This document shows, piece after piece, positions 1,239 through 1,323 of a stretch of DNA of 1,567 bases. Each line of letters opens with the position of its first letter. Position 1 is the stretch's first letter. Below the pieces are notes generated by a model. The model searched no databases and was not told the DNA's origin. It saw nothing but the letters and a program-made list of their open reading frames with translations. The DNA is from Escherichia coli. Lineage in GTDB: Bacteria; Pseudomonadota; Gammaproteobacteria; Enterobacterales; Enterobacteriaceae. The DNA is taken from assembly GCF_003334385.1 (NCBI RefSeq), contig NZ_QOWN01000111.1; one strand, written 5' to 3'. The translations under genes and the position numbers were made by a program.

Positions 1239-1266
1239 TTGAGTAAGGCAAGGGAGAAATTATGGT
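1239..1266 (+). promoter_or_regulatory. Weak sigma70-like promoter candidate upstream of the small ORF and Rz
   Basis: TTGAGT (1239-1244), 16-bp spacer, TATGGT (1261-1266); each hexamer matches consensus at only 4 of 6 positions. A second -10-like TATAAA at 1294-1299 has no good -35. Sequence resemblance only. Confidence 0.15.
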
Positions 1267-1323
1267 GAGGGAGGTGCTTTCCCTGTGAGGAAGTATAAAA
1301 GATTCTTTCTGAGGTTGTCCATT

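Follow-up and report, generated by a model that had tools for sequence, protein, structure and literature searches.

The 1,567-nucleotide (nt) stretch of Escherichia coli contig NZ_QOWN01000111.1 that was analysed here (the window) is a lambdoid prophage lysis cassette, which carries genes for a holin, YdfR, lysozyme R, a small protein, and the spanin component Rz. The small gene is annotated as coding for a protein of 37 amino acids (aa) and is separated from R by a spacer of 221 nt. A mini open reading frame (mini-ORF) of eight codons is located in this spacer. It begins behind a Shine-Dalgarno (SD) sequence, contains a second one, and ends on a probable start codon of the small gene that precedes the annotated one. 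The features on which its interpretation depends are as follows.

1193-1225, plus strand: intrinsic-terminator-like hairpin after lysozyme R (15 pairs, then a T run), the upstream edge of the leader
1250-1256, plus strand: SD1 (AAGGGAG), putative ribosome-binding site (RBS) for ATG 1262, spacing 5 nt
1262-1288, plus strand: mini-ORF of eight codons (MVREVLSL, then TGA), not in the frame of the downstream gene
1268-1276, plus strand: SD2 (AGGGAGGTG), inside the mini-ORF, 8 nt before GTG 1285
1268-1284, plus strand: small hairpin with arms at 1268-1273 and 1279-1284, which would mask SD2; significance doubtful
1285-1437, plus strand: long form of the small membrane protein, 50 aa, from GTG 1285; probable true start; overlaps the mini-ORF stop
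1311-1314, plus strand: SD3 (GAGG), 9 nt before ATG 1324, in every homologue found via the 37-aa core
1324-1437, plus strand: short form, 37-aa hypothetical protein WP_000675931.1 (RefSeq annotation); possible second in-frame start
1439-1567, plus strand: 5' part of the Rz spanin gene (lysis protein WP_032149150.1, RefSeq annotation)

Direct reading of the letters agrees with the anatomy proposed in an earlier, sequence-only reading of the window. Between GGGAG (1252-1256) and ATG 1262-1264 lie 5 nt (AAATT); the codons ATG GTG AGG GAG GTG CTT TCC CTG TGA encode MVREVLSL, with the stop at 1286-1288; and AGGGAGGTG lies at 1268-1276, 8 nt upstream of GTG 1285-1287, as the strongest anti-SD match in the window. 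What holds of the in-frame start claimed at GTG 1285 is that it is in frame with ATG 1324, 39 nt away, so that 1285-1437 codes for 50 aa. We add that TGA 1286-1288 overlaps GTG 1285-1287 as GTGA (-4 spacing), which gives the mini-ORF the stop/start overlap of a coupled upstream ORF (uORF) at 1285-1288. The terminator-like hairpin at 1193-1225 is context and lies outside the mini-ORF.

Among the 88 start-like triplets in the window, GTG 1285 with SD2 has the strongest predicted anti-SD duplex (-12.7 kcal/mol, rank 1). ATG 1262 with SD1 ranks fourth (-8.4 kcal/mol), so that the mini-ORF has, in silico, an RBS of its own at a spacing of 5 nt, and ATG 1324 with SD3 ranks 11th (-6.3 kcal/mol). In a post hoc test, 1226-1284 was shuffled 5000 times with dinucleotides preserved, and 11% of the shuffles contained an SD-led, out-of-frame uORF that ended at the small-gene start. 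This fell to 1.8% when only ATG starts were counted, and to 1.4% when an SD2 of -8 or better was demanded as well. The arrangement is uncommon, not extraordinary.

Leaders of related prophages and the range of the mini-ORF

An IMG/VR scan for the KYK..LRL coding pattern, in which the leader was left free, gave 121 usable sequences. They belong to the following types, where start2 stands for GTG 1285 and its equivalents.

Class A (n=50): SD1, then ATG-x-AAG TAT directly; without uORF
Class B, the window type (n=35): SD1, ATG, eight-codon out-of-frame ORF with SD2, TGA overlapping GTG start2
Class C (n=33): different leader; GAGG-AAATT-GTG opens a 13-codon out-of-frame ORF, then GGAG and GTG start2
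Other (n=3): including L086 (class D), with an 8-codon ATG uORF, MDMEIFRE, that ends 5 nt after GTG start2

Exceptions within class C are a TAG variant of 4 codons and one sequence with GCG at the start. A further sequence, L056, reads AAGGGAGAAC-CTGTGGGGAAG and resembles class B minus the mini-ORF segment. In H-19B, SD1 is present as AAAGGAGAAAGT-GTG and opens a different small gene. The comparison suggests that SD1 serves as a common RBS for the gene that comes first behind the R terminator, and that the mini-ORF goes back to a length difference (an indel) of about 23 nt between this RBS and the gene start, either state of which may be ancestral. The additional 23 or so nt of class B place ATG 1262 out of frame, and the frame which it opens therefore runs for eight codons through SD2 to TGA. 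While the coding region is about 95% conserved, the leaders differ greatly among classes A-D.

The same boundary is seen in a wider set of matches. From 1090 to about 1259 (3' end of R, terminator, SD1) the window shows 87-96% sequence identity to hundreds of Stx1, Stx2, and other lambdoid phages. In most of them the similarity ends at a sharp mosaic breakpoint at about 1258/1259, just after SD1, beyond which these phages carry other small genes or unrelated sequence. The U12A leader was considered as a parallel case and rejected: it has an ATG-led ORF of 9 codons that ends in TTGA, but this ATG lacks an SD, and the GGGAGG of U12A aligns with SD1. Also rejected was an origin of the leader as a remnant of the Stx-phage ant gene, as the homology to YYZ-2008 stops before the terminator and the ant start is its own and distant. 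A scan of genome contigs (298 Gb) for AAGGCAAGGG-N{8,38}-AAGTATAAA, a pattern which proved too loose, gave no true homologue among the 120 matches listed, which are chance matches from unrelated phyla.

A second scan of IMG/VR, with SD1 and KYK as anchors, and protein-based look-ups gave a larger class B set. It comprises 81 sequences with 12 distinct leaders. Conservation of the mini-ORF across related prophages had been named in the sequence-only reading as a check, and within class B the frame passes it: ATG, eight codons, and TGA are found in 81 of 81 sequences, and the stop/start overlap is GTGA, ATGA, or TTGA in all of them. Even a diverged variant of the Citrobacter type, in which about 8 of 44 nt are changed, retains ATG, eight codons, and TGA. 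The peptide, by contrast, varies and occurs in eight versions (MVREVLSL, MGREVLSL, MGREVFSL, MGREVLPL, MGREVLYL, MCREVCSL, MCREVYSL, and MGGKVLAL). Only Met1, Val5, and Leu8 are constant, and codons 2, 3, 4, 6, and 7 change their amino acid.

The minimum number of substitution events per site in class B is 0 for the ATG (over 3 sites), 0.17 for GTGAGG, 0.25 for SD2, 0.55 for the extension between GTG 1285 and ATG 1324, and 1.0 for 1276-1284. SD2 is thus the least variable part of the mini-ORF interior. The two GTGAGG copies noted in the sequence-only reading are indeed present in the window (1265-1270 and 1285-1290), but the first is restricted to the sub-lineage of the window (7 of the 81 sequences); the others have GGTAGG or TGTAGG at this site.

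The start of the small membrane-protein gene

GTG 1285, and not the annotated ATG 1324, is probably the start of the small gene, which would make the RefSeq annotation 13 codons too short. The 50-aa form matches phrog_4493 with E = 1.4e-24, and its residues 1-50 align with positions 1-54 of the 56 in the PHROG profile. A second match is to phrog_1115 (E = 2.1e-11). Both are families of unknown function, and searches with the small protein against Pfam and NCBIfam gave no hit.

A direct counterpart is found in phage PhiR5_2, where SD1 (AAGGGAGAAC) directly precedes ATG GAG AAG TAT AAA CGA ATT CTG TTG AGG TTG ACT ATG AAA AAC. The ORF led by SD1 is an annotated coding sequence (CDS) of 60 aa with the N-terminus MEKYKRILLRLTMKNGLELK. 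Translation of the window from GTG 1285 gives (M)RKYKRFFLRLSIMKGIEVE. The fact that the two readings match indicates that the 13 codons before ATG 1324 are homologous to the N-terminus of an annotated protein, which in the 60-aa PhiR5_2 protein reads MEKYKRILLRLTMKNG.

Start2 varies among relatives in the way of a start codon. In class B it is mostly GTG, with ATG in L164 and TTG in the Citrobacter-type L129, and exchange at 1285 within GTG, ATG, and TTG only is start-codon-like behaviour. The homologous site in class C is GTG, ATG (L008), or TTG (L094). Between alleles, the changes in the extension (1288-1323) include the synonymous pairs AGA/CGA and CTG/TTG and one in-frame indel of 3 nt. 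Homologues that were fetched by the 37-aa core alone, and are therefore unbiased for the extension, show the synonymous changes TTC to TTT, ATT to ATA, and CTG to TTG, together with AGA to AAA (Arg to Lys). By these changes the extension appears to evolve like coding sequence. Start-codon variation, the coding-like extension, and the PHROG coverage together bear out the earlier proposal of GTG 1285 as a start, and it is very probably the real one.

The practical gain is a correction of annotation: the start of the widespread WP_000675931 probably belongs 13 codons upstream, at a GTG. Prophages with this lysis-cassette locus were found in 670 of 5,426 complete E. coli genomes (about 12%). Attention is also drawn to a small membrane protein, so far uncharacterised, whose gene travels together with that of the spanin Rz. 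Its stop codon (1435-1437) is followed by a gap of 1 nt and the Rz start at ATG 1439 (a start at 1440 is to be corrected), and the same gap is found in most loci from the protein look-ups. In these, the small gene usually lies 1 nt before Rz (Phage_lysis) while the endolysin is of the Phage_lysozyme, Glyco_hydro_108, or Peptidase_M15_4 type and the holin families differ. The small gene and Rz thus appear to travel as one module across three endolysin types.

Proposed translational coupling and competing readings

The reading that we favour, tentatively and at somewhat less than even odds, is that the mini-ORF is a translated upstream mini-cistron that hands ribosomes to the true start of the small gene, as a natural bicistronic design (BCD). 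Late transcription would yield an mRNA that reads through the R terminator. After about 150 untranslated nt, ribosomes would load at SD1 (AAGGGAG) and start at ATG 1262; eight codons later, having passed SD2 and the weak hairpin, they would reach the stop at TGA 1286-1288. By way of the GTGA overlap and SD2 8 nt upstream, either such a ribosome or a newly recruited one would initiate at GTG 1285 and produce the 50-aa protein, the stop of which abuts the Rz start. It would be translation of the mini-ORF that matters, and not the sequence of its peptide. In this reading, which we infer as the most likely, ATG 1262 would be used and expression from GTG 1285 would depend on it. Coupling onward to Rz is plausible because the small-gene stop lies just 1 nt before ATG 1439.

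Ribosome loading at SD1 is to be expected, since SD1 with a start codon 3-5 nt downstream is a working gene start in sister phages. Moreover, classes C and D, which have different leaders of different lengths, also show an SD-led, out-of-frame short ORF that ends near GTG start2. Of the two options offered in the sequence-only reading, a leader peptide or a uORF, the latter stands: the mini-ORF is a uORF in the translation-initiation region of the small ORF.

Such an arrangement would belong to a known kind, that of short coupled uORFs or mini-cistrons with NTGA overlap, with a putative dependence of the downstream gene. NTGA (-4) is the commonest spacing of coupled ORFs (review PMC12548453), and NTGA-type coupled uORFs include uORFs 1, 14, and 16 of Sinorhizobium meliloti and the 4-aa glnK uORF (PMC13285730). 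Mutation of start codons has shown that short uORFs with an ATGA overlap and two strong SDs activate the downstream ORF (PMC13285730; PMC12548453). The mini-ORF shares with the S. meliloti uORFs a strong SD of its own, a second SD in or near the uORF, the -4 stop/start overlap, and an irrelevant peptide. It differs in that the main start is a GTG, that it lies in a late polycistronic mRNA of a phage, some 160 nt behind the preceding gene, and not at a 5' end, and that sister alleles are devoid of the uORF.

With synthetic BCDs the mini-ORF has in common an SD1, a short leader cistron that holds SD2, and a stop that overlaps the gene start; in these designs the helicase activity of the ribosome clears structure around SD2 (PMC8601185; PMC6302717; bioRxiv 10.1101/2023.02.09.527918). 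The present case is natural, has eight codons against the usual 16 or so, uses GTGA in place of TAATG or ATGA, and has only weak structure (-7.2 kcal/mol). The two-cistron and BCD constructs reportedly go back to Schoner in 1986 and Mutalik in 2013. A phage parallel is gene VII-IX of f1 (PMC12548453), also with a -4 overlap in a phage mRNA and a hairpin just before the downstream start which the upstream ribosome would unfold, but there the upstream cistron is a real gene, while the hairpin in our case is short, non-significant, and without covariation. If true, coupling would provide a natural example, in a prophage lysis cassette, of a design used by synthetic biologists. The mini-ORF itself leaves the understanding of translation or lysis unchanged, and a description of this particular mini-ORF was not found in the literature checked.

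Several results weigh against coupling. Class A has no mini-ORF and its homologous gene is led by the same SD1, so the mini-ORF would not be needed for the gene. GTG 1285, with about 80% predicted unpaired probability and a very strong SD, could initiate on its own. The hairpin that a coupled ribosome would have to melt is non-significant (z = -0.56 against shuffles) and is broken in three variants, and the class C uORF is not strictly kept, as the TAG variant of 4 codons and the GCG start attest. The case for selection is weak as well. Approximately 15 minimum events occurred in the 27 nt without destroying the ORF; about 12-22% of the possible changes would do so, and the chance of no destructive change is 0.02-0.1 by a rough estimate. 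At the local substitution density, an ATG unchanged at its 3 sites would arise with a probability of about 20%. Retention of the ORF beyond chance is thus only weakly suggested, partly because TGA is fixed by the overlapping GTG-AGG codons. Finally, a genuine downstream start has exceptions among the relatives. A deletion of 1 nt frameshifts the extension in L129, and start2 is lost to GAG in L135, L136, and L138, so that only ATG 1324 would be usable there.

A further view, which we regard as possible though on balance unlikely, is that the mini-ORF is a neutral scar. An indel of about 23 nt would have placed an out-of-frame start behind SD1, and the inserted SD2 and GTG alone would drive the gene; if the mini-ORF were translated at all, selection would not act on the effect. 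Class A and L056 join the same SD1 directly to the gene start, the peptide is unconserved, and 1276-1284 is the most variable stretch of the leader (1.0 events/site). The TGA arises automatically from GTG and an AGG or AGA second codon, and NTGA overlaps evolve easily (PMC12548453). The 11% of shuffles with SD-led coupled uORFs, the divergence of leaders A-D against a coding region conserved to about 95%, which suggests low constraint, and the accessibility of GTG 1285 (about 80% unpaired, with the strongest SD of the window) behind a hairpin that has no statistical or covariation support all fit this view. It does not readily account for ATG 1262 and the length of eight codons in 81 of 81 sequences, the diverged L129 included. 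Neither does it account for the SD1-led ATG or GTG of classes B and C, which keeps its GAAATT-RTG position through many other changes, nor for the SD-led uORF of class D at a different spacing. Furthermore, if the strong SD1-ATG pair, 23 nt before the real start, were unproductive, it should interfere and be removed by selection, not kept.

The inverted repeat described in the sequence-only reading does exist in that AGGGA (1268-1272) pairs with TCCCT (1280-1284), but it does not stand out as a feature (-7.2 kcal/mol, z = -0.56 against shuffles), and its stem is broken without compensation in three natural variants (L080, L139, and L129). The predicted unpaired probability is about 0.25 for SD2 and about 80% for GTG 1285. 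A further inverted repeat, CCTTG-AGTAAGG-CAAGG at 1237-1253, covers the first bases of SD1 and reduces its predicted accessibility to about 0.18. In classes A and B the loop varies but the arms do not, and L086 has CTTGA/TCAAG instead. As SD1 is predicted to be as sequestered as SD2, a simple unmasking model has no thermodynamic support.

It is highly improbable that the mini-ORF is a regulatory leader peptide with attenuator (trp, erm, or secM type) or a programmed frameshift site. In the first case a signal would be sensed by the peptide or by the position of the ribosome, and an RNA structure would switch; in the second, ribosomes would move from the frame of ATG 1262 into that of the gene. 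The overlap of the hairpin with SD2 would suit an attenuator, and AGGGAGG directly 5' of CTT T has a superficial likeness to the prfB +1 site. However, the peptide is variable, without conserved arrest or regulatory codons, the hairpin is non-significant and lacks covariation, and no terminator is found downstream of the mini-ORF. A leader peptide in the attenuator sense, as the sequence-only reading would have allowed, finds no support in the eight different octapeptides, and alternative structures were not found. A scan of Rfam 15 at a permissive E-value gave nothing at or above the gathering score, and hence no cis-regulatory family; sub-threshold hits were terminator-driven only. The best of those overlapping the region was a rimP leader on the minus strand (24.8 bits against a gathering score of 47), also terminator-driven. 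As to frameshifting, a +1 shift at CTT T would read CCC TGT GAG GAA GTA TAA and stop after 5 codons, and no X XXY YYZ heptamer for a -1 shift into the gene frame was seen when the frames were read by eye; both candidates were rejected.

We give as little credence to an antisense RNA of 70-90 nt, which would start near 1285 from a promoter-like site on the minus strand, run to the terminator at 1225-1193, and be complementary to SD1, the mini-ORF, and SD2. Its sigma-70-like promoter, TGGACA-18-TATACT (1321-1292, minus strand), matches the consensus at 10 of 12 positions, and A and T runs flank the terminator hairpin on either side. Yet a window of this kind should by chance contain about 1.2 promoter matches as good as this one, both hexamers lie inside coding sequence (the KYK and SIM codons), and the -35 element is absent from class A alleles. 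In addition, Rfam contains no match, the weak hits being terminator-driven only, and the minus-strand fold of 1262-1290 is weaker (-5.7 kcal/mol).

A different role for SD1 would be occlusion, which we judge to be quite unlikely. A ribosome at SD1/ATG 1262 would cover SD2/GTG 1285, lower the amount of the 50-aa form, and shift output to the 37-aa form, so that the ratio of isoforms would be controlled, in the manner of dual-start lysis genes. Upstream RBSs that are 3-25 nt from the main start can repress by occlusion (PMC13285730), and the two starts are 23 nt apart, which is within this range. Two in-frame starts are conserved, each with its own SD, and unrelated small genes in H-19B and U12A also have a basic extension of 13 residues and an internal Met with its own GGGAG SD. 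Every homologue retains ATG 1324 and its GAGG SD, among them L129, L135, L136, and L138, which are the variants without start2 or an intact extension; the short form would therefore always be possible, and the long form usually. On the other hand, class A has no upstream site, and the occluding upstream RBSs in PMC13285730 are weakly translated and have long overlaps, while strong-SD uORFs with NTGA overlap are activating.

The most far-reaching reading, for which we see very little chance, is that SD1 with the mini-ORF, SD2 with GTG 1285, and SD3 with ATG 1324 form a translational switch that sets the ratio between a positively charged 50-aa form and a short 37-aa form of a small membrane protein locked to Rz. 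If true, it would be a dual-start lysis regulator not recognised before, similar to a holin/antiholin pair but acting at the spanin step, and the small gene would be genetically locked to Rz whatever the type of holin or endolysin. Of a possible dual-start motif of the lambda S type, both in-frame starts and both SDs are present and conserved; the two products would be predictions from sequence. Lambda S is a dual-start lysis gene (S105/S107) with the sdi stem-loop. The likeness would extend to a small membrane protein of the lysis cassette, two in-frame starts, a short, positively charged N-terminal extension by which the forms differ, and RNA structure with an SD just upstream. Unlike in lambda S, the starts are 13 codons apart and not 2, the protein is no recognised holin (no hit in Pfam or NCBIfam, PHROG function unknown), and the two products are putative.

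Side by side with this, we note that small membrane proteins at this locus share a basic N-terminal extension of 13 residues and, behind it, an internal Met whose SD is encoded within the extension. This possible dual start resembles those of holin/antiholin genes. Examples are MRKYKRFFLRLSI-M in the window (1285-1326), MFDFSKLIREIRV-M in H-19B (L007, 1672-1809), and MIDFSKLIRELRL-M in U12A (L004, about 1790-1940).

The lysis cassette and minor observations

Positions 1090-1450 show 100% sequence identity to E. coli strain EC2 (NZ_CP058571). The RefSeq annotation of the EC2 stretch provides the genes upstream of the spacer.

13-150: class II holin, 3' end
155-505: YdfR-family protein
569-1102: lysozyme R

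In the Qin prophage of E. coli K-12, R overlaps Rz directly and the small gene is absent, and the published mapping of start sites in K-12 is therefore of no help here. The literature checked on prophage small RNAs (sRNAs; AgvB/AsxR and the Pas sRNAs) reports nothing for the R-Rz spacer. The Pas sRNA genes are located between esterase and holin, that is, upstream of the window.

The hairpin at 1193-1225 has A and T runs on both flanks and could act bidirectionally. Variants with other endolysin types have an equivalent hairpin at this site, whose arms differ in sequence yet remain complementary (CCCCG/CGGGG, CCCCAG/CTGGGG, and GCCCCG/CGGGGC, compared by eye).

In some E. coli genomes (L135-L138), genes for a type II heat-labile enterotoxin (Enterotoxin_a, LT-IIB; 1-624) are found directly upstream of a class C small gene (1201-1314). 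No gene is called between them, and start2 is GAG in three of these four loci.

Anti-GcvB RNAs are known from prophages of enterohaemorrhagic E. coli. A weak Rfam match to GcvB at 392-562 on the minus strand, antisense to the 3' end of ydfR, is probably due to chance (19.9 bits against a gathering score of 42, E = 0.1).

The start of lysozyme R, ATG 569, has practically no SD. Its anti-SD energy (region 549-571) is +0.6 kcal/mol, rank 85 of 88, compared to -8.5 kcal/mol for the ydfR start at ATG 155, and a gap of 63 nt separates ydfR from R.

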